A stretch of DNA of 56,767 bases, counting the filler, from Sphacelaria rigidula (lineage: Eukaryota), in assembly GCA_964200075.2 (NCBI GenBank). It is 3 parts of 3 records of this genome, joined end to end, with 100 filler letters (N's around TTAATTAATTAA, not from the genome) between each part and the next. Parts side by side here need not be neighbours in the genome. Positions count along the whole stretch, not along the records: positions 1 to 18,861 come from CAXNAA020000775.1; 2 more parts are not named here. The stretch is one strand, 5' to 3'. A model generated the notes under the pieces. The model was given only the letters and a program-made list of their open reading frames with translations. It searched no databases and had not been told where the DNA came from. The position numbers and the translations under genes are program-made. Shown piece after piece: positions 8,370 to 50,085 of this stretch (positions are counted from its first letter, which is position 1; every line of letters begins with the position of its first letter).

Positions 8370-9283
8370 AAAGAAGAAAAAAAACAAAACAGTGTCTACT
8401 GATCAATCCCTTGCGGCAAACTCGACAAGACAAATATCGAAACAAATCATGACAACTCTAGAAAAAAATGCCCTCCGCGAGGCGGGCTACGTGTCCGAAG
8501 GATCTATCCGCGCTGCCCCCTGCCTCTACTCTCAACTTCAAGAAAGCACTGCTTGCTGTGACGGACTCCTGTTACGCATGCGGTTCTCTTCAGCCGTCGC
8601 ATGCTGACAAGAGCAAAAACCTGCGGTCGTGCGGTCGCTGGTGTCCACGTTCGACCCACCGTCCCTCGAGTGCGGTACGACCGAAAAAAACGAAAGAGAC
8701 AAGACAACGGGGCCTGGAACGGGATCTGGAGGTCCCACGGCCGCTCGCGGGGTGAGGGTGGGAGTCGAACCCTCAAGCCTGGCGAGGACAGTCCACGGGA
8801 CCCGAAAGAAAAGATGATCCCAAGAAGAAAAAAAACAAAACAGTGTCTACTGATCAATCCCTTGCGGCAAACTCGACAAGACAAATATCGAAACAAATCA
8901 TGACAACTCTAGAAAAAAATGCCCTCCGCGAGGCGGGCTACGTGTCCGAAGGATCTATCCGCGCTGCCCCCTGCCTCTACTCTCAACTTCAAGAAAGCAC
9001 TGCTTGCTGTGACGGACTCCTGTTACGCATGCGGTTCTCTTCAGCCGTCGCATGCTGACAAGAGCAAAAACCTGCGGTCGTGCGGTCGCTGGTGTCCACG
9101 TTCGACCCACCGTCCCTCGAGTGCGGTACGACCGAAAAAAACGAAAGAGACAAGACAACGGGGCCTGGAACGGGATCTGGAGGTCCCACGGCCGCTCGCG
9201 GGGTGAGGGTTGGAGTCGAACCCTCAAGCCTGGCGAGGACAGTCCACGGGACCCGAAAGAAAAGATGATCCCGAGAAGAAAAA
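8370..9283. repeat. Near-perfect tandem duplication, 451-bp period
   Basis: Identical ORF translations at 8392/8843, 8468/8919 and 8629/9080; only isolated mismatches seen (e.g. 8760 vs 9211). Confidence 0.95.
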
Positions 9284-10131
9284 AAAGAAAGAAGTATGCA
9301 TGGCCCCACCGACACTTTTGCATTTCAGGATCGAGTTTTTTTTCACGGGAACGTGGAAATCGGTTATTGCCTTCCACTCCCGAGAAGAAGAGCAAAACCC
9401 TCGTCGGGTCGACGCACAACTGTTTGTACCGTGCTCTATTGACTGTGCATGCCAGAAGTCAGGGTCCAACCCTGAGTATTGAATCAGGAGTGGGCCGTTT
9501 GAGAACGAGGTCGGCAAAAATTCGGAACAGTACTTTAAAGTCCACTCGTCGCCCCACGCCTGGTGTTTGTGTCTTGAAGGGTTGTGGGCCACCTCGGCGG
9601 GGCGTCGTCAACGGAGATGATCTTCAGGGTGAGGTTTTCATTTCCTTTGCGTTTTCTCCCGCTACTCTCAGGGCGTTTCTTTCAGTACGAGAATGTCCCA
9701 ACCTCCCTTGCCCCCCGGAAAAGTGGAGGCCATTTGTTTCCATTCAGCATATACCTTATCCTCGCGTGCTGCCAGCCATGGCTTGTTTGCAGTTTCCCCT
9801 CCTCACGGAGAGTCTTCTGCTGCATGCTGTAGATGAATAAATTTCGGATCGGTCACCGCTTTGAATGGGATTGGATGCTACTGAAGACTTTCAACGTGAG
9901 GGGTCACATTTTGTACTGTTCTCAACATTTTTGGAGGAAAACCAAGGTAAACGACGCATTTTTCCTCCTCTCCGGCGGCGCTCCCGCGGGGCCGTTTCAC
10001 CACCCGGGGGGGAAAAGGGGCGTTTGCGGCTCTCAAAACACTTCAGGGCCGGCACCAATAAAATCATGCACGCCCAGGCGTGTGAATGCCTCAAGAACAC
10101 CGCAATGAACGCGCCCGACGGTCCCAACCGT

Positions 10132-13100
10132 CTACGAGCTATCTTTCTCTCCCGCAGAGGCCTCGTCGCGATTGTGACGCATGACACAGCGGTTATACCA
10201 CTGGGTGACGGAGTCATTGCCTTTCTGTTTCTCCGCCGCGTCGAGCATTTTTTCCACCTGCGACTCATAGGTATCACACGGCTTGTTGGCCTGGTTTGCG
10301 AGCGAGCGGGAGGGTCGGGGGCACGCGGGCGGGGGGCATGGACGCTTACAGGGTGCGGATCCATTCTCCATGCGAACGGCAGCAAGAACGAACGTGTTGA
10401 GGTATAACTTCTTCTCACTGGCTCAGTGCCGGCGCGTACAAATAAGAAGCGCGGGGTAGTCAGCCGCGCCATGCCATCCCACAGAGCTCGAAACTCTCAA
10501 GCTGATTAGCCGGGTCGGGGTAGGTCACCTGCACGAGAAGGAGCAACGATTCCATGTACTTTCCGGCTTGTCTGTAGCGGTTGTAGGTGCTGCTCGACGC
10601 CCAGGCGTTGGCCTGCCTCAGGGTCACCCGTCCGTGGCTCCTCAGGTTCAGCCCCTCCCCCGTGCCCTGGACGAAGGCAGGGCCACGACCGGCCCAGCAC
10701 TCCCAGAGGGAGCTGAGCTCACGCCCGGGGGTCCCACATTGGCCCAGGCCGGGGAGCTTCCCCGTGAACCATCCCTCTCGATGGGGCTGAGCTTCTTCTG
10801 GCTCCGGCTTTTTATCGAGCAACCGGCGGAGCCTGTCCGCCCCTTCTCCTGTCTCCGACGCCAGTTGAACAGCCACCTCCATCAGCTTCCGCGCTGTTTT
10901 CTCGGATCGTTCCACCAGTTCCTGAAGGGAGTCAAGCTGTCGCATCGTCCCGTTTTTTTTTTCGTTTTTTGCGTCGGGTGGGAGCGAGGGGCGGGGTCAA
11001 CAGGGATCAGGGGTTTGCCACCCGAGGCAGGCGGCACGAGGTCAGTTCCACGCGTATCGAAGCATGCGCACCACACAGGTCGGGGAGCGAAACAGCACGG
11101 TGCGTTATGACCTTCTCACCCGAGCAGTGATGGCTTCTTGCCTACTCGACATAAGGTTCAGCTCGTCCGCCACGGCGGGGGATACACCAGACTTCAGCCG
11201 CGCAGCCGCCTCCTCCCCCTTGAGCTTGCCAATCTCCGCCAGCGCAGGCTCCGCCCAATCCAAGAACAGCCGGCTGTTGAAGGGATACTTCTTGTAGAGG
11301 GCGAAATCGGGGAAGCGAGGGCGCAACTCCACGGCCCCCCGGCAGAGGACCAGCCGGAGATGACACATGAGCTCCAGGGTAGCTCTCTCCGTGTTGGTGG
11401 TTGCCGTGCAGCCACCCCATTCGCCGCCGGCCTCGAGTTTATCGAGGGCGGCCGTGAACCCCTTGAAAACCTCGCGACACAACGCGGGAGGCACTTCTAC
11501 TTCCTGCCGCGCGCAAAAGTATGTTGCCGTTGCTGCCGTCTGCCCTCTCCCCACGGCTCCGCTTTGACTGATGGCAGACATCGTCGACAGAGGGCGATAG
11601 ACCAGGGTGCTTGTACCGATCGATCCTCCTCTCGAATCCTTCGCGTGAGTTACGCATTGTGTCTCGAGGGGCGGCACCCTGCCGCGGCGGCGGCGGATAA
11701 ACAGGGGCATGCAAGGAGGGGGTATCACAAGGAAATCGCTTAGTCCTATTTGTGCCGCTAACGCGATAAGAAAAGAGCATGACCCACTCGCACGGCGGAC
11801 ACACGATCGATCGTACGCTCGTGCGGGGACTGGTACCAGCCGCCGGTGTAGCAAGCGACCCCGGCCATAGTGTCCCGGGACTTCACCCTCACCTATTTCG
11901 AGCATCCTCCTGAGATGCGCTGACACGTGCACCGTGCACCACCTTTCCCCAGACGCCGGCGCCCCGGTGCAGCGAGCGCACGCTGGAGTACTGGGCACTT
12001 TCCGTGTACGGCGTCCCATGTCGCTGCCCCGTAAATACCCGAGCTGTGTACCACTTTGCCCGGTCTTCGAAGTTTGGAAGGTCGTCCTTGTCGACATCAA
12101 AACGCCAGAAAAGATAAAGCGCGAGGGAAAAGATAGGGCAGAGGGTGACGTCCAACGCTTCCAAGCACATGATGCTCCTGGCGCGGCCGTATTTTATCGT
12201 CTTTCCTTTCCTTCAGACGCAGAGAGCATGGCGACACAAAAGATGCGGGCGGGGGGGAGCAATCGGCTCTGTGTTCAGGAATCGCCACGTGACCTTCACG
12301 TAGCGGTCATTCTCGGAGTCAACCTGCCAACGCGGGTGATTTATGGTTGCAGGCAATTGCCGGAGCCACACGCTTGAGCAGCAACTGCGAAACAAGGGAG
12401 AGGGTTTCCACCCTACAGGGACTGATGGCTCGTCATGTACTCACGCGCCCACTCACTCACTCACTCACTCACTCACTCACTCACTCACTCACTCACTCAC
12501 TCACTTACTCACGCCATGATGAAGCTCAATCGGGGACATACTCACCTCACAGTCACGAGCATTGCCCGAGTGGGTGCCCGCCCGACCTGGGGGGTGAGGT
12601 CTTCAGGCAGAAGAGCGAGGTTGTTGAACGTGAGACCCCTGGTCAGCTCGCCGCGACAGATCAGCGCGTGCCTGGCGGACAGCGAAACGTGGGCCGGGGT
12701 CGTGCCGTACGTGAGAAGTCTTGTGCACGAGACCTCTCACTGTTAATCGAGGTCAAGATCGTGTAGTTGGTGTGAATTCGGGTTGGAGTTTACTCGAGTT
12801 GGAGCTACGCCGAGTTGCATTATTGAACGACTCACCTCAGGTTTGTATCGGCCAAGAGTCGGAGCGAATCTCCTGGCAGCGCCGGGTTCGACGCGGTTGC
12901 GGAACGGAGGACAAAAGAGGCACACGACGGTGGTGGGCGCGTTTATCGTTCGTGGCTGAGACGGTGGGGCGTGTCGTCGATTCATCTATAATTGCTACTG
13001 CAGCCCACATAGTGTGTGCTCCGCCTCGCGGCTTGACCCCAGCTTACTTGGGTTTTGCCTGGGGAACAGCGTTCCTGCCATCGACCTGTGTCGTGTCTTC

Positions 13101-16100
13101 CCGTACGTTGCGATAGCTGCGACGCCGTCGAGGTACTCTCCTCTCGATTGCGTAAGAGCGCCCGCGTGCTTCTCGTGCACCGACCGCATAACCAGCACAA
13201 CCGAGTCGTTCGTACAGGGTTTCGCGACACCAGCGGAGAACTGACGAGGGTTGATGTGCCTCAGGTGATCGGCCCACGCCGACAAGTTGGCGATCGACGT
13301 CTGTATAGACCCACTGCGCAAAGCATGCAAGGCGGGGACGCACTCACGCTCAGCTACCCGTTTCTGGTCATTACCTCATAGCGTGCTCAAAACACGTCGG
13401 CGGGCTTCTGTACAGGAGCCCCTCCGATCTATTACGCGGCGGTCAGGGTGAGGACATCGGCTGCTGGACGCGTGCTTTCGGGGGGGGGAGGCATACGCAT
13501 TTGTCGCTTGCCTTAGTCGTTCGACCGTTGACCCTGGGGTTGGGGGTCCTAGGTACCATAACGTACGGACTGTTCTACTTGGGAGTGTTGGGTCGGAAAA
13601 TTTGTTAGGTGTTCATATTCCCTCCTCCTCCTCCTCCTCCTCCTCTCTCCCCCCCCCACCACCACGTTCACCTCCGAAAGACTGCTTGACCCCCCCAGAA
13701 TGAAATGCAGATGCCAAGAAAAAAAAGCAGCCGCCGAGTGATGCTACGGTAGGGGTCCACAGATATTTGCTGACGTCAGAATTGTCAGGAGCCGTCGATC
13801 TCATGCAAAGCATCACTTGCTAAGAAATGTTAGAGCACGCCAGGATTACTACTCCAATGTGCTGGGGATATCCCGAATGAACTTGCAAACGAGGATGCCC
13901 CGACCCATTTTCTTTGCGCAATCTAGAATCGTGACGAGCCCCTGAACTAGACAATATGTCAAGGGTAGGTCGAGTAGAGTGTGTACGTTTGAGTACTCGA
14001 GTAGAATACTCAAGTATTTACTCTACTCGACGTTTGAGTAAATCGAATACGGCCTCAAATACTCTACTCGAATTTTGAGTAAGCACTCTCGGTAATTCTT
14101 GAGTATAGAGTATCACTCGAGTATGACCTCAATGCTCTACTCAAAATTCGAGTAGATTGAGTATGATCTCAAATACTCTCCTCGGATAATTGAGTAGGTT
14201 GAGTACGACCTCAAGTACTCTACTCAAACTTTGAGTTTCAAAAGTATGACTCTTGCAAAATACCAGCATTGCTCCACCCATGCTCTGTGCGTGTTCGGTT
14301 CACGCATTCAAGTTCCTCCCCCCCCCTATCGTAGCACGGCTCACCGTGGGGGGGGAGGAGTAGCGGACGCGGTCATTTCGACAGGGCTGGACGCCCTTCG
14401 CCCAAGGTAGCCTCTTCGAGTGTTTTTCAATTTTCCAGGAGAGCTGAGCTAGTCCAGAGGATGCCTATCTCGAGTGTACTCAAGGCTGAAAAGTAGCACC
14501 ATTCCATCCTGCTTGTAAAGATTACCCAAATTGAGGATGACAACAAAGTGAAAAGTTGGAGATCCCGAAGGAACAGACATTTCTTCGTCTTCGACGACTG
14601 CGGCACCGGGGAGGCTTCGGAATTATGCAGACACACGTACTACTTCACGCGGAGCGGAACCCGCAACGATGGGGGGGGGGATTGCGGAGTCTGTCAGGAT
14701 GAATCACTCACGCGTGAACGCTCCGCCTCCTTTCTCTCTCCCGGTCGCCTCGGAGATCGCCGCGACTTTCCTGCCATCGAATGAACGCGATGAGCTTCAC
14801 GTCGCGGGGTCCAAACGGTGCCAGGGGACGGGGTTGCAGGGCGAGCGTCAGGCGGGCATTCGGCGTCGCTGCACAAGACGAAAACGAGCCAACACCAAAA
14901 CACGCGGAGCGCCGCATGCGCCGGGGCGCAACATCGCGCTTAGGGGAGGGAGGAGGGGGGGGGCTAGCGGGGTACACCGGCCCCCGACTTGCACTCGAAT
15001 GACGCACCTTCGCGGGGCTGGGATAGTACAAGGAAGCGGCGCTCAGGTCCATGTCCTCGCGCAGATCCCGCCGTGTGTCCATCCACGCGCAGAAAAGGGC
15101 TACATTGGAGTTGGCAGCGCCCTGCGAGTGTGCGGATCGACGCTTGCGAGCGGCATTCTGAAAGGGGAGACAACGCCGGGGTTGGGGTTAGCGGGATGGG
15201 AGGTAGGTGAGTCCGCACTGCACAACGTGAGACGCGAGGTTTCCCCTTGCGAGTGGTCGATTCTTTGCCCTAGCTCGGGCTCCGGCTTACTCTCCTCTCA
15301 CCCTCAGCGAGCGCTTCAGCGCCCGATGCCTTCGGTAAACAGATACGGCACTACACTGGCACCTTCTCAGCGAACGCCTCGCGGTCAGCCCTCTCGCTCA
15401 TAGTCAGGTCGCTGTTGTCGACGCCAGAGGCTGCAACCACAAACATATCTGCTCGCTTCAGCTCAAGGTATCGGCCACGGATGACCTCGTCGCTATCTGG
15501 TCGTCGGCCGGCGTGCCGCAGGCGAGGAGGGTGGAGGAGAAAACACCGGTTAAGATGACGGCGGAGGAGCGCAACACGCGGAGCGCGGGATCGACGGTCG
15601 CAGGCAACCACGGAGCACAATACCAGCAATCGCAAACGAAACCCCGGTGCACGATGTCTACCTTGAGAGGAATCATCTCCAGCGCCGGGCGATGGCCCCG
15701 GTGCCGCGACGTTGTCGAGGTATCGTTCACACGACACTGCACCCTTGCCCACCCCGCTCCTTCTCGTCGCCGCAGCCCTACCCGTTGCGCCTTCGTCCTC
15801 AGACGTTTCGCCGCTGCACTCGCTTCCGCTGCTGCTGTCGGTCGTGTAAAAGCCGTCGGCGCTATCCTGCGGCACACGTTGGGGGCGGGCGGGGAGCGCA
15901 AGCTTTGCTCGCAGCGGGTGGACAAGCTCCTCCCCGCGTAGGCCGGGCCCGTATCGTGAGATCAGTCGGTGCCTGCGTAAGGTGCCGGCACCTCGTATCT
16001 TCATCCCATGAACGAGAGGAACACGGCAACGTACAACGTACCTCTGTGGGCACCCCAACGTTGGGGCGAGATGGCTCGGGGCTACGGTTGAGAACCGGAC

Positions 16101-16125
16101 TCTCTCGACCATTCCTCGCCGCGAG

Positions 16126-16170
<45 letters not shown>

Positions 16171-17110
16171 TGACAAGATGAGAAGAAACGGTCAGAAGGA
16201 AAGAAGCTGCAAAAGGAGACTAAATACGAAAGCAACGTTGAAAACAATAACGCACCCCCCCGTACCCAAGGTTACGGTCGGGGTCCGCGGCAAGTCAGTC
16301 TGTTTACGATAGCAACCCCCCCCCCCCCTCCCCTCGCCCAAAACAAACAAGAATAGGAGAAAACAAAAAACAAAGGAACAGCCCAAAACTGCCGCGAAAA
16401 CAGTTTTCCTGCCGCGCCTGATATTTCGTTTCAGGGCTGCATGAAGCGCTCAACCCTTAGACCACGAGATTAGTCTTTCTGGATCACGCATACTTTTTTT
16501 CACTTGAAATTGATGCCGATCCATCAGGAGACTAACCTCGCGGTCTAAGGGTTAGTACAGGCGACATTTACAAGACCGGTCCCAATCGCGATAAATCCCG
16601 ACCGCAAGCAGCTGTTTTCATTTCGATTTGCGTGTAGTTTTTGCCTTCCCAAAGGAGCTACTCAAGGGGGGGCAGGACTGTCGTTGGAAGTGGCAAGTGC
16701 GGCCCTACTTTGGCAAACAAACTTACGGGCTCGCTGCGGATGTCCTCGTCGCCGTGGCCACCGCCGCCGCCATCCGAGGACTCCGAGTCAAACCGGGCAT
16801 CGTGGACCCCGGACCCGCCACCACCCCTGGCGGCATTTTCGGCGGACATCCGAGAAGCTTCCCTCGTGGCAACTCTCTCCACGTCGTCAGCTGCGGCGTC
16901 GTCGCTATCGTCGGACCCCGCTCTCCGCCGCTTGTTTCTATTGACGATCGCGGACGCAGCTCGCGCCTCATAGCATTCGAAAATCTCTCTGTTTTTCGTC
17001 GTGGAAGCAATCGCTGCCGATCGCTTGACCCCTGCTGCCCGCGTCGAACCCGCGTTACCCTTTCCCTTGGCCCGGCCTCTTTCTCTCCCGAGGTTGGCAC
17101 CTTTCGCCAT
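10132..17110 (-). CDS. Crypton-F/Ndc10-type tyrosine recombinase with C-terminal GCR1_C-like domain, 12 exons, ~1001 aa
   Basis: Hand-spliced exons (minus): 17110-16727, 16043-15662, 15496-15363, 15157-15008, 14794-14712, 13313-13048, 12872-12836, 12671-12546, 12210-11893, 11678-11120, 10936-10529, 10290-10132. All introns are GT-AG and phase-compatible; total 3006 nt with no internal stop. Motifs: LRLLADTNLRHALICRGE, VRKGKTIKYGR, LCPIFSLALYLFWRFD..LPNFEDRAKWY, KVVHGAR, VTH, LVY, YFCARQEVEVPPAL, LRLVL...RFPDFALYKKYPFNS..F, LSSLWECW. Exons 4-10 are well supported by motif continuity; exons 1-3 and 12 are less certain. Confidence 0.8.
12450..12505. repeat. (CACT)n microsatellite in a recombinase intron
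   Basis: Tandem cact units seen directly. Confidence 0.95.
13970..14250. repeat. Degenerate ~44-bp tandem array rich in GAGTA/TACTC
   Basis: Recurring ttgagta...ctcaa.tactctactc units; lies within predicted intron 5 of the recombinase. Confidence 0.75.
16452..16553. mobile_element. ~100-bp MITE with piggyBac-like CCCTT...AAGGG ends
   Basis: Inverted arms aacccttagaccacgagattagtc and gactaacctcgcggtctaagggtt; flanks TCAA/TTAG resemble a decayed TTAA target site. Confidence 0.55.
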
Positions 17111-17961
17111 GTCCCACCCTTAGCGGTGCCTGGGGAAAATGCGAGCGGAGAGGGAAGGGAATCGAGCCAACCAACGGCAGGTAGGATGACGCGTGAATGA
17201 ATGAACAATACCATCGTATCTCCGGAGCCACACATGGGCGTCAACGCCGTATACCTGTTGCTACACGGGGGCGACACACGACCATCGCCCCACCACCAAA
17301 CAACAACAAAAAATCGGCCGCGTTACGTTGAAAGATGCTCAGGAGAGCCAGGTATGGATGTACCCTTACCCTAGATCCCCCCCCCCCCCCTGAAGGTGTA
17401 CAGGTAGCGTCACTACTCAAGAAACTCCACTTTGAGGCGAGGCTCAATTGTTATTCATATCACCGAGCCAAGCATAATTTTCTTGAAGCCAATTTCTAAC
17501 TTTCCGCACACGCGCAGTGATGACGTTTTCAAAAGCCAATATCTTTCACTTCCCGCGCGCGTACAGAATGATGTAATTCTTCAAAGCGAAAATCGTTTCT
17601 TACGAACGGATGTAATCGAACTTCAGTACCATATAGCGAGACATGTCGTTCTTTTTGCAGTGTTGCTTGGACAGATTATCTGCGGGAACCTCGCAGTATA
17701 CAGCAAAACAAAATGGTTGACCAGTACAGTCGTGGTGTACGGTTTCCCTGTGCAATAGATGTAAATAAGCACAATCACTTCGGGGTGAATCGCAAGACAA
17801 GCATCATACTCTATCATACATGTATGATATAATACATGCCGATATATTGGGGGCAACATGGCAATGACCAAGAAATGCAGTCACATCTCGTACTATTTGC
17901 TGTATTTATACGATATACTAGTACGTTTACATCTAACAGTCAATCAATCATCGAAATTGAG

Positions 17962-18365
17962 CATAGAGCTTTTCATTGAAAACGAAAATCCAGCAAGTGA
18001 AACTCTTCGTATCCACACCAAATCTTCGACATATGATACCATTCCTTCACCTACTGGCAGCTTTTCGCGAAACCTCCGACATGCCCTGAAAAATTGGATT
18101 TCGATTGCCGAAATGCTGGGGTCCGTCGTGAAGAAACGATTTGGGGGAATGGGTGTAATCCGATCGGATCGCAGAAACTTCCCGAAATCGACTCTTCACA
18201 GGGGACCCCAACATCTCGGCAACCGAAATCCAAATTTTTATGGCATGTCGGAGGTTTCGCTAATAGCTGCCAGTAGGTGAAGGAATGGTACCACATCTCG
18301 AAGATTTGGTATAGATACGAATATTTAAATTCTCCCGGTTCTCATCCTCAGTGAAAAACTCCATA
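17962..18365. mobile_element. ~400-bp imperfect palindrome (foldback MITE)
   Basis: ataccattccttcacctactggcagc (~18037-18061) pairs with gctgccagtaggtgaaggaatggta (~18266-18290); centre atccgatcggat at ~18163. The right arm is homologous to ~45005-45185. Confidence 0.8.
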
Positions 18366-18409: not shown

Positions 18410-18740
18410 GAACACAACGAGCATGACTCGTGTGCTGGATCCGTTACCTTTTTTCCAGCGGGCGATGACTTGTGCGCTCGAATCATTACTTTTTTCTACA
18501 ACGAGATATGACTCGTGTGCTCGAGTCATTATTTGTTTACAACGAGCGATGGCTCGCGCGCTCGAGTCATTACTTTTTTCTACAACGAGCAATGACTCGT
18601 GTGCGTGAGTCATCCATTTTGTTGCACGACGACTAATGACTCGTGTGCTCGAGTAATTCATTTTCTCACGACGAGCGATGAGTCGAGTGCTCGCCCTAAA
18701 AATGTACCACTCAAGAGATACTCTCCGCCGCTCGAGTATA
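18410..18740. repeat. Degenerate ~42-bp tandem array (atgactcgtgtgctcgagtcatt...acaacgagc)
   Basis: About 7 contiguous diverged units with no unique spacers. Confidence 0.85.
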
Positions 18741-18861: not shown

Positions 18862-18961
18862 NNNNNNNNNNNNNNNNNNNNNNNNNNNNNNNNNNNNNNN
18901 NNNNNTTAATTAATTAANNNNNNNNNNNNNNNNNNNNNNNNNNNNNNNNNNNNNNNNNNNN
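18862..18961. other. Assembly gap with synthetic six-frame-stop linker TTAATTAATTAA
   Basis: 44 N + TTAATTAATTAA + 44 N; identical structure at 37818-37917. Confidence 0.95.
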
Positions 18962-27538: not shown

Positions 27539-30500
27539 ATGGCGGTGGATGTGCGCAGGGGAAGAATGGAAAAACGCGGAGCAGCGGCGGATGGGGTCCC
27601 GGCCCCGCCGGCGTCAGTGTTCACGACACGGCGAAAGCTTTTTCGGCGAGCAAGCCTGACGTCCTGGGGGAAGGATAACCTTGGGATGACCCGCGCAGCT
27701 GCAGATATCAATTATAAAGAGCTGATGCTCACGGTGCAGCAACAGAAGGTCCGGCTTCCATATGTACAGACAGTGTTGTCATCGTTTGAATAAATGCAAT
27801 ACAGTACATCTCACACCACCACCGTAAGCCGAACTGCTGAGAGCGCGGGTTCGGCTTGAATCTAATGAACACGCCTACCCTATCGTTAGAAACCTTTGCA
27901 GGACATGCACTGATAAACAGCCAATGGTGATCCGTGGCATAAACAACCGCTCATCAAGTAGCGCTCGTCCGCTTTCTTCCTTACTTCGCCACCGATCCCA
28001 CTATAACAGTACCAGGATAAAGAAAAGGCAGCACAGCGGAGAGTGTCCTACACAGAGAGCTGCGAGGGTGAGCAGATGTTACGGCAACGAAACGAAAGAA
28101 GGGCCAGGCTTCTCTCCCGCTCTTGCGCACGAAGAGACTTCTTGACCGCCTGGGAGATGTGAGGTTCAGAAACCCTTTGTGTCCTCGTCAACTTGCAGCA
28201 AGTTGGACGCAACGCAACTACGGCCTGTGTTACACCGGGGTAAAGGATTCACTCTTCGGACACAACCACGAGTAGAAAGGATCGAGTACATGTCATAACG
28301 CAATTATCGTATGTGGTCGTTCCCTGTTTCAACGTCCAGCGCCATGTAGAGCAGAATCATCTTGATACCTGGAGTGGTACAACAGAACAAATAAATATTG
28401 GACAACCGCCCTTCGCAACTTGCAGGGAAGGTCGAGCAAAATGGAAATCGAATCAACAAGCCCTCTGTCTCTACGAAAGACGTCTTTTAAACTACGAGCT
28501 AGCTGTACGAACACGGACTTCAGCTCAGCAATGCATGTCAAGAGCTAGGCACGCCAACGACGCCTACGGTGGCATCCAATGGTTCGAAAAGAACCTCGAC
28601 AAACTCGGCCTAGATCCGGGGGGAGACCACGGGGGAAGTGGTGCTGGCGCCGGGGGAGACACGCTCTTGCCGGACAAAGAGACTCAGGCAACGTTCCGCT
28701 CCAAGCTCCTGCGCACCGTTCTCGATCAAAATTTTGTGCCTAGTAGCAACGCAGAGGTCATGGCCGAGCTGCGTTTCCGTGGAAATGCTTGCCGTCGCGC
28801 CCGGCGTGAACGAGAGCACCGCCGACTCAAGACCGAGGTTGATCAACGACACGCAAAAGCCGAGACGGACGCTCAGCGTGCTGCAGACGAGCACTTGGAT
28901 TCGATGCTTGCGGCGGGCCAGAAAAGACGGATGACTGCCGCGGCTCATTGGGAGCTTCGTCGGGTCCGTGAGCAGCAGGCTATTCGAGATGTTGAACGCT
29001 TCAAGGAGATGGACGTAGCCGAAGAGGCTGCGTTCGAGAGGGCTTTCCACGAACGCTCGAAGTGCGCACGAGAGCAATACGCGGTGGGCAAAGCTGGGCG
29101 AGAAGAGGTGGCTGAGTCGTTTAAGATCAAGCTACGGCTGCACCGCGATAAAAAGCGGCAACGCGTGCACCACTTGTGCGTGGAAATTGCTCTCAAGATC
29201 GTAGATCTTACGGTCGTTGCGTCGGAAACCCGGGCGGACAGGGGAGCACCATTACCTCCAAGCTTATGGATGCGCCTGAAGCTACGGTTTTGTTCTCCTG
29301 ATCCATTCTTCGAGGCGAGCGTCCATCCAGACGCTGCCAATAAGCCCCTAAATCCTGTGCTTGAAGCTAACGCGTCGCTGCAGCTCCGGAATCTGGAACG
29401 GTGTGAAGGTCAATGGCGACCGCATGGACTCGTTCGGGCAGCTTTTGAAAACGAGTGTAGCCCGTTGGATTTGGCACTATCTGTTGCTCGAGATCTTGTG
29501 GAAACGACATGTAGCACCCCACGCGAAAGTCCTACTGCATTTCACGGTGATGGCAATGCAGATAATGGAAATACTACTGATGAGTGGAATACGTCCCTTA
29601 GGTTGGTGTTTCTTGGGGGTACGGCGGCAGTTTACTCGGAACTCGCAGGCTGGGCAGGGCTGTACTGCTGCGACTTGGAAACGGCGCTGGAATGCGCTAT
29701 GGATCTGGGTACCGAGATGGCTACAGTCAATGCCGCGAGCGCTGGAGGGAAGAAAAAACGGAGGAGCAGCGGTACTCGTAATATCTCGTCGGTGAATGCA
29801 GGTGTAGTGGATGGTGGTCTAACCGGGGGCACAGCGGGAACGGTGGAACACAATCAAACCTCTGCTGCCCGCAAGGCGTTTGACCCCGAAGCTCGTAAAG
29901 AAGATGTAGTTGCGTTCAAAGAGGCGGCGGCAGCGTACCACGCGCTTCGCACCAACCCAAAGAAGGCAACGGCATCAGTTTCTCTTGCCACACTGACAGA
30001 TATTCTTGTAAAGCACCTTGCGTGCCGATCGCCGAGCGGAAGACGGGGCTGGATGCTCACAGGCTACCCACGCTCTGTGTTAGAGGCAAAGTTGCTTGAG
30101 AACGCGCTGACAGGGTACATGGATGATGACGTGGCAACAGAGCTCGGGGTCGGGGTCAAAGGCTCCGCATCCGACGCAAGGAAGAAAAAAGACAGCTCAG
30201 TTCCCGCGGAGAATATTTGTCCATCCACACCCTCCAAGTCCGGACTAGATGCGATATTGCACATTTCAGCATCGCGTCCACCAAAAACGCTGCCACAATT
30301 ACGAGACGTATGTGGTAGCGAAAATTTAGACGGTGGACACGACATGAAGGGGTCGGACCCAGAGGATGATCAGAATGACGTAGCAGAGCGACCAAGGTCA
30401 AGCGCTGACCGGACGAAAATGACTGAAATTTCGGGACAAGATTCCGACGAGGATACAGAAGAAAACGCACACGAGGAGGCAGATGCTTTCGCACCAGAAA

Positions 30501-33500
30501 GGCAAGCTCTAATCGGGTGGTGGTCGACGTTCGAAGGTGGCCAGTTGGTATGCGAAGTTCCACAGGAGGACAACGACGAGCGCTTGCTCGAAACTCTTTT
30601 TTTACTGGTGATCCTGGCACAGGAACGAAAGGTAGGGATGGAGCAAGACGTTTGTGAGATCCCTTCAATGAAAGCTCCCGACTGTGGTAACGAACCCCTA
30701 AAACCCGTTCCTGACCTTCGTGACGTACGATCCAGTCGAGCGAAACCTACGCCACGTGCAACGCTTCGTCAACATGTTAGAGAACAGTCATCGGTTTGAA
30801 GCGAGAAGTCTGCGATAACATCTCAAAATGTAAAACACCGTTGGCGTTATCCATTTTTTTTCGTCAACCATGTCTTTGCAATCCTTCAAGGAGAAGTACG
30901 AAGCTTGGGTGGGAGCAAACAAAAAAGCCAAAGAGACACTGGCAGAAGGAGAGACCGGTCTAGAAACTACTAGCGATGTGTCTTCCCCATCAGTGGCCCA
31001 CCGATTTTCGCCTCTCGCCTCCGCGCTGAAGGAAACTCTTGAAGATATCAGGGTCCGGCGGCGAGGGCGTATGTCTCACGCGACAAGAATACGCGTGGAG
31101 TCTCTTACTGGAGAACGAACAGTCGACTTCGCAGGTGTTAAAGAGGCAATCACGTTGGCAGAAGACCCTAATGACTCCAGCGCGAAAAATGTTCCTGATG
31201 GCACGAAGAAGGTCCTCTCCACACGGGAGGCTTTACAAAATCTGGAGGAAGAGTGCGCAGCTTCCTATGTGGTGGACTGGATGACAGCCGCTGAATATTC
31301 GTTTGCCCGCGGATTGCGCACACCGGACAATCGATGGAGCACCGTGTGCCTAAGACTGGAAGCCGAGATATCCGAATTCGTCTCGCGTACAGAGGAAGCG
31401 GCGGCCTTCGATAGCCGAGCTCGTGGCCGGAGCAGGACGATGATCAATAAAGCATGCGGGTCCGGCACCGAAGACGCTTGCACTCACGCGCCACCCGCTG
31501 AATCCGATCCCGTTTGGAACGCAATTGACGCATTTGAGCTGGAGGCGGGAGACATCGTCGACGATAGACATACCACGGTGGACGCGGTGTTTCACGAGAT
31601 TGACACTGAAGCCCAGCGGCGGGTGTCCACATGGGTACAAGTTGCTTCGGCTGCTGCCGCTAGTTTGTGCTCCGCGGAGCGCGGCAACTACGTTACAACC
31701 ATTGCCAATTTGCGCTCTCTACATGCCCTCTTTGGTCTCGAAGAAGAATCAGGCGCGGTCGATTTGCAGACCGCAAGGATATTTACTCAGACTGCCGCCG
31801 ATGGCCTCGAATCTGAGCTATCGAACCCAGCAGCAAACAGCCGCAACCTCTTCGACACCTGCGGTGGGCTAGATCTTAGAGAAGAGGCGAAGTTGGCGTG
31901 TGAGGAGGCAAATACGGCAGCCACCGTTGGCCCTGTCGATTCCATTCTTGACGGCAAAAGTGAGGCGAACTCGATGGGGAACAGCGGCCAAGGAGCTATT
32001 TCGGTGCGTGACTTTACAAGCGTAGATGAGATCGCTGCGGCGGACCACGATGCAGACGGTGGTGCCACGGTCGACAGGCGCTGCGATACAGTGACAAGTA
32101 GCAGCCGCTCAATGACAACACAAGATGAACCCCTCATTTGCGGTGACAAGGATTCCGAGGCTAGACCCAGCCGTACCAACAGTGCTCGGGACGCGTTTTT
32201 GACGGCCATGTCGAAAAGCAGGTACTACTACATCTGCCGAGTGTGGGGCGTGGTAACGAGACTTTTGAGAGCAGTAGAACGGTGCGATGTGTTGACACAT
32301 TCGGCTGTTGCACGTATGAAGCTGATGAAGCGTCGTCGCGTACACCTGGAACACAAGTCGGTGGACGTAGCTGTCGCAGCCGTGAAAAAAGCGTTGGCAG
32401 ATGGCGACACCGATCAGATAGGAGATTTTGTCCAGAACGGAGTTCCGGTGAGTTTTCAGCTTTTGCAGTGGAACCGTAATCCAATGGGTGCCCGCCATGA
32501 CCACGGATTCTAGTTGAACATTCGAGTTGACACTAGAAGGTTCACTAGAAGGTCCACGCTGAAAATTAAAGATTGAACCTTCAAGTTTCGAGTGCAACAT
32601 TTTTTCCGGAAAGCTCAAGTTATACGTTTTACCTGAAGTTACCGTCATTTTAAAGCTCCTGAATCTTGAATATTTTCACTCGAACCTTCCCCGAGTTGAC
32701 ATCGAAGGTTCAACTTGAACCTCGAATCGAAAAACCTTGCACCGTCGACTTTTTTCCGGCAAGGAACCTCACACCTTCAATGCGAGATTCCACGTGAAGG
32801 TGCAAGGCTGAGTACGAGGCTAACCTTATACCTTCAGTTCGATCCAGTGGTTCACCTTGAACCTTAAACTTGAATGAAGGATCCAACTTGATGGTGGAGT
32901 TTGTTTGGTCGATTCGATTGATCGGTCGCGTATCATTCGCTAGACTTGTACATATCCAGCCGTGACCAAGAAACAGATACACCCGAGGTGAACAGGCGGA
33001 AACACGTGTCGAGGTAAACTTGAAAGAGGATAAGTGTGAAAATAAGATGGAAGATAAAATGGAAGTAGAAAAGGATAGAAAAGAAATGGAAAGGGATAGA
33101 GAAAAAAATGAAAAGGCACAGAAAAAAAAGGGGGGGAGGGGCAGCTCAGGAAAACGCCAGGATAAGATCTAGTACCGGTTTGAGATACCTCCTACGCGGC
33201 CCTGCCGCCTGGCTTCAGGAAAGGAGACTACACGAAAATGAACATGCCAAAACAATAAAATAAAATAAAGGAAAAGAAAGAAACAGGAGAATAAAGGGCA
33301 ACTTTGAAAAACAAGGAGAGAGGAAGATACCGACGAATAAAAAAAAACACCAAGAAACGCAACCTGGGCACGAACCAGAACATGAACAGAAGATATAGCT
33401 GGGGAACATCGCTAGAGCCGAGTGAAAGTTCAACTTGAAATTTGGTTGGAAATTCAATTCAAATTCTTGTTGGACCTTCATGAAGCCCACATTGAATGTT

Positions 33501-48100: not shown

Positions 48101-50085
48101 CTGTCTCTCAATTAAAATTCATTTGTATGTACCTGTACGCAGTAAAAAACGTTGACGTCTACCGCAGTTTCGCTTGAGTCAGTACTACCGGGGGCTACAA
48201 CAGGGAACGCCAGGGGAACAGGGGGGGCGGATTGCACTGAACTTTTAACAGACTCGAGAACCAACAAGGGGAACGGGATGTAGTCATCATCAGGATCAAT
48301 CCTTTTACCATACGTGAAGTACCCACACCCATCACTCCAAAACCTAAGACGCTCATCCAGTAGGGTCACACTCTTGTCGGAGTCATCAGTCGAGAAGCCT
48401 ACTCCTCGCGTGTGCGCAGCCACTACTGAGGATACATTGCAAGCTAAATCCGGTACGTATGCGACCTTCTCAAGCCTTACTTTTTCTCCGCAGCCCTGTT
48501 GGGGGAAACTACAGTCAATGACCCACAACACTCAACGTTGATGAGGGTATTATTACCGATTTTAACCTCGTCTTCAGATGGTTGCACATCACGGTACATT
48601 TCAGCTGATTTAGTCATATGAAATGTTGCTCCACTATCAGCTATCCACCTGTCACCATCATCGTCACTGCTTTCAATCACTCCTACTGTATCCTCCTTAC
48701 GTTGTCGCATACCAATCGACAAACACGCTCGGATATCAACAGAGCCACCCTGTGATTTCTTCGGGGCTGGGATGACGTGTGCGGTACAGTCAAACCATAG
48801 GTGTCCTGGCCCTAAGCAGCGATGACACTTGTTTCGCATGTCGTCATACTTCTTGTCCACGTTTTCAGTGCTTTCATTTTGGTCGTTTTTATCTGCTGCA
48901 GCACCACTGGAAACACCCCCACCTCCTTTGGGACCACCCTTGGCGCCATCTTGATTGCGATTTCGCCGGGAGGACTTGCTCGTAATGAGATCTTATCCGA
49001 CGTCACGGTTCTTCGTACTCCTCCTTCACATATGCGTTGGTCTCTGTCGTACGATAGCCCCTATCTCTGCCCGGGTTATGTCGTCTCTGTAGAAGATTGT
49101 ACGCTGTTCGTACCCGTAGTCACTTGTAGGTACCTCAGCTATCTTGAGGTTAAGATCTTCTACAGGGACGTTACCCCGAGTGATACTAGTACACCCACAG
49201 TCTTATCTACGCGCGCGAAAAGCTTCGCCGAATGTTTTTTTTTTTCATCCGTATCTCGTTGAAAAGGCGTTTCCACTTCGATTTTTACGAGAGAGTTCTC
49301 GGGGAGAAACCAATCAACTAAAAGCGCCATCCTACACTCGGGGAGTTTGTGTCAAGCACCCTACTGAGTAATTCACGGTCCGTGACACTCTATGTCAAAT
49401 ATGTCATAGCAGTACGTGCTCGTCTTATGCTGGTCTCACTAAACCCTTGGTCGACCAAAAACTGTAAACTCACTGAGGGGTCGCCTACGTGCATATCAAT
49501 TGTCGTACTGGAGGCCTGCACACAATCGTTGGATAAAGCACACCCATCAAATCGTCTCTTCCACAATGGAAAATCACCACTTCCTCCTAACTTGGGATCA
49601 GCAGCTTTGATGCTTCTTATTTCCCTAGCATTCAACGCGAAAGTTCTACCTCCTACAGTCCTAACCTCACCGACGTCTGGCAGGAGGCTATCGGTGGTGA
49701 CTACACCCCTGCGACCGGAAGCAGACCCTGCACGCTCCACGCTCATAGTACCATCGAGATACGACGGTTGATCTCCGCCGACGGACCTTTCAATTCATCC
49801 GCCTCTGCTTTCCTGGGCAGTCTCGACCCGTGACAGCCTTCCTACCAAGGTCCTTGTCTGCGCCTCGAGCAGCGCCCTCAATTCTTCCACTGCGTTGTCT
49901 CGATCAGCCATCTCAGAGCAACGATCCAAGTTTAAACTTATACGTCGACGTATTCGAAGGATCGTGTTGATCAGATGATCTTGGAGCAACAACAGCCCCT
50001 TCCTGTGTGCTCAAACAGCTCACTGCCCGCTTACAGTGACTGAGAAGAAGATGATGCGTTGTAAGTCTTTATTATAATTATCCTC
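45195..50085 (-). mobile_element. Decayed Ty1/copia LTR retrotransposon, 3' truncated
   Basis: Order on the minus strand: gag (ATG 49911; PKLGGSGDFPLWKRRF), zinc knuckle CHRCLGPGHLWFDC, protease WIADSGATFHMT, integrase (CAGC; LKDDFTRYAWVYFL; RPDDGGE; NGGAER; LWAEAMYWA), RT (IYLRLPPG; LYSLKQSGRAW), RNase H (YVDADYA..RRSV; LSTTEAEYVA; QHADILTK). IN before RT defines copia. Frameshifts present; no matching LTR pair found. Confidence 0.93.

Follow-up and report, generated by a model that had tools for sequence, protein, structure and literature searches.

An intact, transcribed gene for a Crypton/Ndc10-type tyrosine recombinase in the brown alga Sphacelaria rigidula

The DNA described here, a 56,767-nucleotide stretch from Sphacelaria rigidula (assembly GCA_964200075.2; hereafter the window, filler included), carries on its minus strand one intact, transcribed gene with 12 coding exons and a product of 942 amino acids (aa). 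The gene runs from an ATG at 17110 to a TAG stop at 10134-10132, and an in-frame TAA lies upstream of the ATG at 17122-17120. In a plain list of open reading frames (ORFs), the same interval (17110-10132) appears on the minus strand as one frame in broken-looking fragments. The predicted product is a Crypton/Ndc10-type tyrosine recombinase (Pfam NDC10_II) with a complete set of catalytic residues. The protein begins with a disordered acidic and basic region (aa 1-241), followed by a core-binding-like domain (242-405) and the catalytic domain (406-745); a helical linker then leads to a conserved C-terminal domain (~805-942). The exons, their supporting joints and the codons of the catalytic residues are collected in Table 1.

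Table 1. Coding exons of the recombinase gene and the high-copy repeats within its introns. Positions are those of the window; a joint is written as the last place before > the first place after.
Feature	Position	Strand	Evidence and remarks
Exon 1, aa 1-128; basic, then acidic low-complexity N-terminus	16727..17110	-	Joint 15865>16726
Exon 2, aa 129-197; acidic, Ser-rich	15662..15866	-	Joints 15865>16726, 15496>15662
Exon 3, aa 197-241	15363..15496	-	Joints 15496>15662, 15157>15363; aligns with Nemacystus P0191
Exon 4, aa 242-291; start of the N-terminal core-binding-like domain	15008..15157	-	Joints 15157>15363, 14794>15008; aligns with P0191
Exon 5, aa 292-319	14712..14794	-	Joints 14794>15008, 13313>14712; aligns with P0191
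Exon 6, aa 319-408; N-terminal domain (..WADHLRH..)	13048..13313	-	Joints 13313>14712, 12871>13047; tblastn with P0002; its boundary is also where relatives' fragments start
Exon 7, aa 408-420; 37-nt micro-exon	12836..12872	-	Joints 12871>13047, 12670>12835, both in X1 and X2, shorter side 37 letters
Exon 8, aa 420-462; R426 at 12655-12653	12546..12671	-	Joints 12670>12835, 12209>12545; RGE column aligned with CryptonF-type proteins
Exon 9, aa 462-568; K465 at 12203-12201, H554 at 11936-11934, R557 at 11927-11925	11893..12210	-	Pfam NDC10_II; joints 12209>12545, 11677>11892; alignment A3
Exon 10, aa 568-754; rest of the catalytic domain; H579 at 11647-11645, candidate nucleophile Y595 at 11599-11597	11120..11678	-	Joints 11677>11892, 10936>11120; NDC10_II profile positions 231-314; alignment
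Exon 11, aa 755-890; helical linker, then C-terminal domain from ~10786 downward	10529..10936	-	Joints 10936>11120, 10289>10528; A2 columns
Exon 12, aa 891-942 and TAG; end of the C-terminal domain	10132..10290	-	Joint 10289>10528 (+1 cut, giving intron 10291-10528)
102-bp high-copy unit in intron 1, outside the gene product; 25-nt inverted ends, 92% complementary	16452..16553		Word depth in the DNA run
Composite high-copy repeat in intron 5 (1398 nt)	13458..14445		Summed depth 1,600-24,000 in the DNA run

Splicing was assessed by comparing contigs from four public sequencing runs with positions 10000-17400 of the window. Two of these runs, X1 and X2, come from the window's own organism and have their type given as "RNA?", which is a guess, and X6 is a DNA run of the same organism. 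All 11 exon-exon joints are present in the X1 and X2 contigs, with one contig per run for each joint, and every one of the 11 introns reads CT..AC on the plus strand, that is GT..AG on the strand of the gene. None of the joints occurs in X6, where the contigs continue straight across the introns. We treated X1 and X2 as RNA because the spliced forms are present there and absent from the DNA run of the same organism; a processed DNA copy confined to those two samples is a formally possible alternative source of the joints. Together the 12 coding exons amount to 2829 nt with no internal stop, and no stop-free frame was obtained among 1000 shuffles of the same letters. An initial annotation of this DNA had proposed an intact gene of 12 spliced exons, and the joints bear this out; its start, stop, 37-nt micro-exon (12872-12836) and VRKGKT junction all coincide with them. 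The frame it reported, 3006 nt, is 177 nt longer than the supported sum, so some of its exon bounds must differ from the joints. The micro-exon rebuilds LRLLADTNLRHALICRGE in the spliced frame, and VRKGKT is rebuilt across 12209>12545.

The transcript also extends beyond the coding exons. At its 5' side, X1 and X2 contigs carry 26 extra letters upstream of ~17132 that match nowhere in the window, even allowing three mismatches, and there is therefore at least one further exon of the 5' untranslated region (UTR), perhaps located in the run of N near 18900 (~18862-18960). At the other end, the 3' UTR continues below 10000, and an RNA-type contig extends 543 letters past that position. Separately, a run labelled as another organism (X5) contains two low-depth contigs identical to parts of exon 11 (10702-10920) and exon 10 (11120-11383), one of which begins no more than five letters from the edge of exon 10; their source would be either a very close relative or carry-over between samples.

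The family assignment starts from exon 9, which on its own scores 42 bits (E 8e-11) against the NDC10_II profile (PF16787), above the gathering cut-off of 26.3 bits, as the initial annotation had anticipated. The most useful relative is P0002, a 631-aa protein of Nemacystus decipiens (gene model g8109) that covers exons 6-12, including a counterpart of the micro-exon (ARLLADTNLRH) and an alignment with exon 12 over EKMLDAAEKQKGNDSVTQWY, and is 49% identical to the window protein over the aligned part. NDC10_II is found in P0002 with 67.9 bits (E 1e-18, profile positions 27-316 of 317) and in another relative, P0001, with 78.5 bits. Searches of the PHROGs and NCBIfam libraries gave no match, nor did the P0002 sequence alone find one in the PDB. 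A combined-alignment profile including the clade, run against solved structures, matched yeast Ndc10 with E 9.9e-26 and, weakly, residues 289-328 of Cre, its H..R..W..Y stretch. The AlphaFold model of P0002 has a mean predicted local distance difference test score (pLDDT) of 75 and a predicted template modelling score (pTM) of 0.63, and in a Foldseek search of the PDB it matched Ndc10 best (E 2.5e-7), followed by Flp (~1e-3), XerH and Cre, with probabilities of 0.98-1.00. Structure prediction on this relative, with the Tyr-bearing loop at low confidence, agrees with the Ndc10 affinity first proposed: the model folds like Ndc10 and has a predicted two-domain recombinase fold.

All the candidate catalytic residues named in the initial annotation are present and in order, as R426 (RGE), K465 (GKT), H554 and R557 (HGAR), H579 and Y595. 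The six align with the R, K, HxxR, W and Y columns of CryptonF-type proteins, and almost every clade fragment that covers them retains them; only P0024 and P0003 depart from this, the latter with an H>R change and a disrupted Tyr region. The distance from R557 to H579 is 22 residues and that from H579 to Y595 is 16. The latter had been noted as longer than the usual ~9, rightly so: the residue pattern could be matched in 47 of 57 CryptonF-type proteins, and 40 of these 47 have a spacing of 9. In the clade, all 13 sequences that span both residues have the 16-residue spacing, which on this comparison appears to be a lineage trait under constraint and not a sign of decay. In Flp, the corresponding residues are R308, W330 and Y343, with spacings of 22 and 13, and cleavage occurs in trans. 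Because of this Flp-like spacing and the rank of Flp in the fold search, one might speculate that the window protein also cleaves in trans.

The C-terminal domain (residues ~805-942) is strongly conserved in the clade. Alignment A2, with 14 sequences, has 22 invariant columns in this region, including G, W, L, P, G, C, W, G, G, P, L, R, H, G, W, S, S, R, Y and G. The initial annotation took the protein to combine a tyrosine recombinase (YR) with GCR1_C, and this second domain could not be detected by any of the methods used. Pfam GCR1_C has no match in P0002 at E<=10 and none in the 14 clade members at E<=1. With a hidden Markov model (HMM) built from 30 GCR1_C domains, the best C-terminal sequence of the brown-algal clade reached only E 0.46, while the same model recovered 12 of 12 held-out CryptonF-type proteins at E<=2.5e-12. 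The reverse HMM, built from the C-terminal domain of the clade, recovers its own clade only, and hhalign gives a probability of 0.25% for a match between the two domains. By these searches, the domain is not GCR1_C. Against PDB sequences, the A2 profile found a chance match only (E 2). The domain is helical in the P0002 model (pLDDT 58-86), and a stand-alone model made from A2 has a mean pLDDT of 52, with values below 50 across most of the domain. Going by sequence comparison, the domain stands where CryptonF proteins have GCR1_C and matches none of the known families.

With P0002 as query, phmmer gave 354 matches at E<=0.001 among 1.84 billion representatives; the near matches are fragments about as long as single exons, and the distant matches are proteins of 400-1100 aa. 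Among the 150 matches listed, the 83 of at least 300 aa were scanned: all 83 contain NDC10_II, and 44 contain GCR1_C at E<=0.01 (42 at or above the Pfam cut-off). The two domains together make up the CryptonF architecture, which the nearest relatives outside the clade thus have, and the named relatives among them are fungal (Tilletia, Trichomonascus and Diaporthe). The lineage itself has been seen so far in the brown algae Nemacystus, Scytosiphon and Ectocarpus sp. 12, plus further assemblies. In the annotated-protein search, which is weak for long proteins, relatives came from three named species only, and the named relatives lie on short contigs of 1.2-2.6 kb. Only 12 relatives of exon 9 were found among 5.8 billion clusters, each on 1-5 contigs, and a scan of metagenome contigs gave no relative. 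The family is low-copy in public data. Its exon-9 sequences fall into two sets, one window-like (71-78% identical, with HGAR) and the other Nemacystus-like (63-68% identical, with HAAR).

Two species carry more than one copy. In Nemacystus, where multiple copies are known at the protein level only, a 2910-aa protein (P0191, gene model g14002) contains a head-to-tail array of three complete copies and an incomplete one, with NDC10_II in five stretches; identity to P0002, which belongs to the second gene model, g8109, is 92-100% for the complete copies and 95% for the incomplete one. In Ectocarpus sp. 12 there are two copies, 89% alike, one of which is damaged (H>R in HxxR and a garbled Tyr region). 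The exon structure is also shared: relatives' fragments end at the window's exon ends 408, 462, 568, 754 and 890, two of the P0191 copies keep an in-frame intron exactly at the exon 9/10 boundary, and intron positions are common to relatives down to 36-43% identity. Conservation follows the domains, with identities to Nemacystus of 59% (catalytic domain), 48% (C-terminal domain), 43% (N-terminal domain) and 21-25% (linkers).

Trees were built with FastTree (60 rows) and with IQ-TREE under LG+G4 (31 rows), both unrooted and without an outgroup. Three clade members, those whose recombinase domain is nearly complete, group together with 100% support on a stem of 1.68 changes per site, more than three changes away from every CryptonF-type row; a long-branch warning was issued in both runs. 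The clade appears as a separate long branch beside the CryptonF-type proteins, a placement that in unrooted trees would fit a sister group as well as a lineage derived from within them. One half of the initial assignment to the Crypton-F/Ndc10 type stands, namely the NDC10_II tyrosine recombinase, and the filing under Crypton-F is not supported, given the missing GCR1_C and the long branch outside the CryptonF-type proteins.

Several repeats accompany the gene. The 102-bp unit in intron 1 has a summed word depth of ~35,000 in the DNA run, compared with ~58 for its flanks, and is probably a very abundant miniature inverted-repeat element. The composite repeat of intron 5 holds a 42-bp tandem array (14119-14236), and the contigs of all runs break in this composite repeat. 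Microsatellites are present in intron 8, as (ACTC)18 at 12439-12512, and in intron 1, as (AT)20 at 16128-16167. Rfam and tRNA scans of the introns found nothing real; a mir-1277 match in intron 1 was rejected as a chance hit to the (TA)n run at 16128-16167. Just downstream of the 3' UTR lies a 451-bp unit in two tandem copies that are 99-100% identical (8371-9290). About 1 kb upstream of the start codon there is a 201-nt inverted repeat without spacer, 79% complementary (17963-18364), and beside it a 43/84-bp tandem array (18414-18693). Elsewhere in the window, the plus strand has two open frames of great length, 851 and 559 aa (28244-32513), which are probably a host gene of the flagellar central-pair type, the 851-aa frame having a weak match to CPC1/SPEF2 D5 (E 1.4e-5) just under the Pfam cut-off. 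A Pol polyprotein beta-barrel domain fragment on the minus strand (48477-48992, E 2.2e-9) is likely a remnant of a long terminal repeat (LTR) retrotransposon.

What kind of locus this is depends on how the copies and the context are weighed. We give about an even chance to its coding for the recombinase of a Crypton-like DNA element that is resident and low in copy number, a reading that we slightly favour over that of a domesticated catalytic recombinase. It is suggested by the head-to-tail, near-identical copies in Nemacystus together with the second gene model there, by the two copies in Ectocarpus sp. 12, one of them damaged, by the short contigs and three species of the named relatives, and by the CryptonF architecture of the nearest relatives outside the clade. 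Two points from the literature were also counted in its favour, each from the part of the paper that was available: Cryptons as a rule persist in very few copies (PMC3212892), and transposase genes of brown-algal DNA transposons are intron-rich (PMC12477816). Whereas the gene structure, splicing, family, catalytic residues and fold follow from the data above, the activity, substrate and mobility are inferred. The enzyme would clamp DNA, and Y595, assisted by R426, K465, H554, R557 and H579, would attack a phosphate and become joined to the DNA through a 3'-phosphotyrosyl link. The element may then be excised as a circle and re-inserted at a short matching sequence, after Goodwin's proposal and the example of CryptonF-1_cRei in Chlamydomonas, and a circle inserting into a resident copy could give rise to head-to-tail arrays like that of Nemacystus.

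A number of observations weigh against a mobile element, and most of them speak for the possibility, less probable in our view and still a serious one, that a Crypton-derived gene was fixed in a brown-algal ancestor and has been kept by the host with its catalytic residues retained. Such an enzyme would perform or regulate a host DNA transaction, and the Nemacystus array would be an ordinary tandem gene duplication. In particular, tblastn with P0002 finds a single locus in the 56.8-kb window, the X6 DNA contigs cross its exons and introns with zero variant letters in the exons, and the stretch is present in all three DNA samples listed, which come from one study. Three repeats are nested in the introns, and yet the ORF is perfect and all 11 splice sites are canonical, which fits an old, fixed locus kept by selection; the 11 spliced introns and the further 5' UTR exon point the same way. 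The intron positions common to relatives at 36-43% identity, and the conservation of catalytic residues and domains while the linkers drift, accord with a host gene and with an element alike. The scarcity of exon-9 relatives (12 in 5.8 billion clusters, on 1-5 contigs each) is likewise consistent with domestication, as is the manually curated Ectocarpus library of transposable elements (TEs), which contains no Crypton in the available part of the paper (PMC12477816). Two further points count against the element: a search for terminal repeats around the gene gave only microsatellites, nested repeats and chance matches, and the Tyr-bearing loop of the P0002 model (P0002 residues 248-269) has a low pLDDT of ~40, the geometry of this site being a prediction only. 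On the other side, domestication has to accommodate at least four near-identical copies in two gene models of Nemacystus, a decaying second copy in Ectocarpus sp. 12, and the restriction to three named species in the annotated-protein search, weak as that search is for long proteins. Moreover, the domesticated Cryptons described in the consulted part of PMC3212892 have lost the catalytic site, as in Ndc10, Gcr1 and DUF3504 genes, whereas the window protein keeps all six residues.

It is unlikely that the locus is an immobile relic, that is, an old Crypton-like copy that is still transcribed and whose frame is intact by luck or recent arrival. One copy in the window, a terminal repeat search around the gene that found no ends, an H579-Y595 spacing of 16 that is odd beside the usual 9, and the poorly modelled Tyr region would all agree with a relic, but the stop-free 2829-nt frame (0 of 1000 shuffles) and the 11 intact GT..AG introns would not, and the 16-residue spacing and all six catalytic residues, conserved in 13 of 13 clade sequences that cover them, mark a lineage trait under constraint, with which a dead relic agrees badly. 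Endogenous phaeovirus copies are common in brown-algal genomes. Descent of the gene from a phaeoviral tyrosine recombinase (integrase) is nevertheless very improbable: the phaeoviral and endogenous-virus genomes of brown algae in the available part of PMC13236599 all carry a large tyrosine recombinase, but the window gene is interrupted by 11 spliceosomal introns and lies near a host gene of flagellar type, no viral family appears among the 22 large window ORFs scanned, two scans of viral contigs and the PHROGs library gave no relative, and the viral structure library gave no match at E<=0.001, the sole phaeoviral protein listed, FirrV-1-B4, reaching E 0.19 against 2.5e-7 for Ndc10.

Cryptons are among the least understood eukaryotic DNA transposons, and their activity was first observed only recently, in Chlamydomonas (PMC9977147). 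The locus is a full-length, transcribed and, by its residues, catalytically complete representative of a distinct lineage, and it is a candidate for testing whether tyrosine-recombinase DNA elements are active in brown algae or, should the gene turn out to be fixed, whether the activity of an enzyme of this sort can be preserved by a host. A catalytic recombinase kept by the host and conserved across brown algae is a rather doubtful proposition. If true, it would be a Crypton domestication that differs from all those described in having its active site preserved, and that acquired a new C-terminal domain and, ahead of the Tyr, a long spacer resembling that of Flp; it would point to programmed rearrangement of DNA, or to a step in chromosome maintenance, in a multicellular lineage where neither is known. 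Intron-rich, single-copy element genes of this sort are missed by repeat-based TE discovery and by ORF-based reading alike.

The initial annotation knew of no description of such a gene in this lineage, and our literature search likewise found no paper describing such a recombinase family in brown algae, with Repbase, Dfam and supplements outside the search, so that a library entry is possible; nor was any literature found linking Ndc10 with brown algae. A repeat table for Saccharina sculpera lists two Crypton fragments, 111 bp in total. The available part of the Ectocarpus TE paper lists DIRS/Ngaro, PAT-like elements and many DDE superfamilies, and the word Crypton is absent from it (PMC12477816). 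What we describe is a known kind of protein, the Crypton-type recombinase, extended to brown algae; the accessory domain is new and the catalytic spacing unusual.

Among known systems, CryptonF elements (of fungi and oomycetes, with CryptonF-1_cRei of Chlamydomonas) share with the window protein the NDC10_II recombinase, the same order of N-terminal and catalytic domains, the R/K/HxxR/Y columns, a further conserved domain ~60-130 residues past the catalytic domain, and a low copy number (PMC3212892, as far as available). They differ in having GCR1_C, in carrying W where the window protein has H at the fifth catalytic position, and in a spacing of 9 instead of 16; NDC10_II scores 68 bits in the clade (P0002), compared with ~90-255 in most CryptonF-type proteins. 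CryptonF is defined as a YR plus GCR1_C in the accessible text of Kojima and Jurka 2011 (PMC3212892), and under this definition the window protein is not a CryptonF because GCR1_C is not detectable. CryptonS elements of oomycetes and the diatom Phaeodactylum, which according to the same partial source have stramenopile hosts, lack GCR1_C and possess TATGG termini and a conserved C-terminal region of their own (PMC3212892), are alike in host group and in having their own C-terminus instead of GCR1_C, a likeness drawn from the published description only. The phaeoviral and endogenous-virus recombinases are also large YRs of brown-algal genomes (PMC13236599, in the part available); compared by fold, the one phaeoviral protein listed is a weak match (E 0.19), and the window gene, in contrast, is intron-rich and in a non-viral setting. 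Ndc10/Cbf2, a kinetochore subunit of the yeast CBF3 complex, comes first in both the structural and the profile comparison and shares the Pfam family of the window protein, but it has lost the catalytic site and has GCR1_C (PMC3212892, from the part consulted), the reverse of the window protein. Flp, from the yeast 2-micron plasmid, forms the second-best fold group (E ~1e-3) and has no family-level sequence similarity to the window protein. The two proteins nonetheless both have a long stretch separating the fifth catalytic residue from the Tyr, and a distance of 22 residues from R to W/H.

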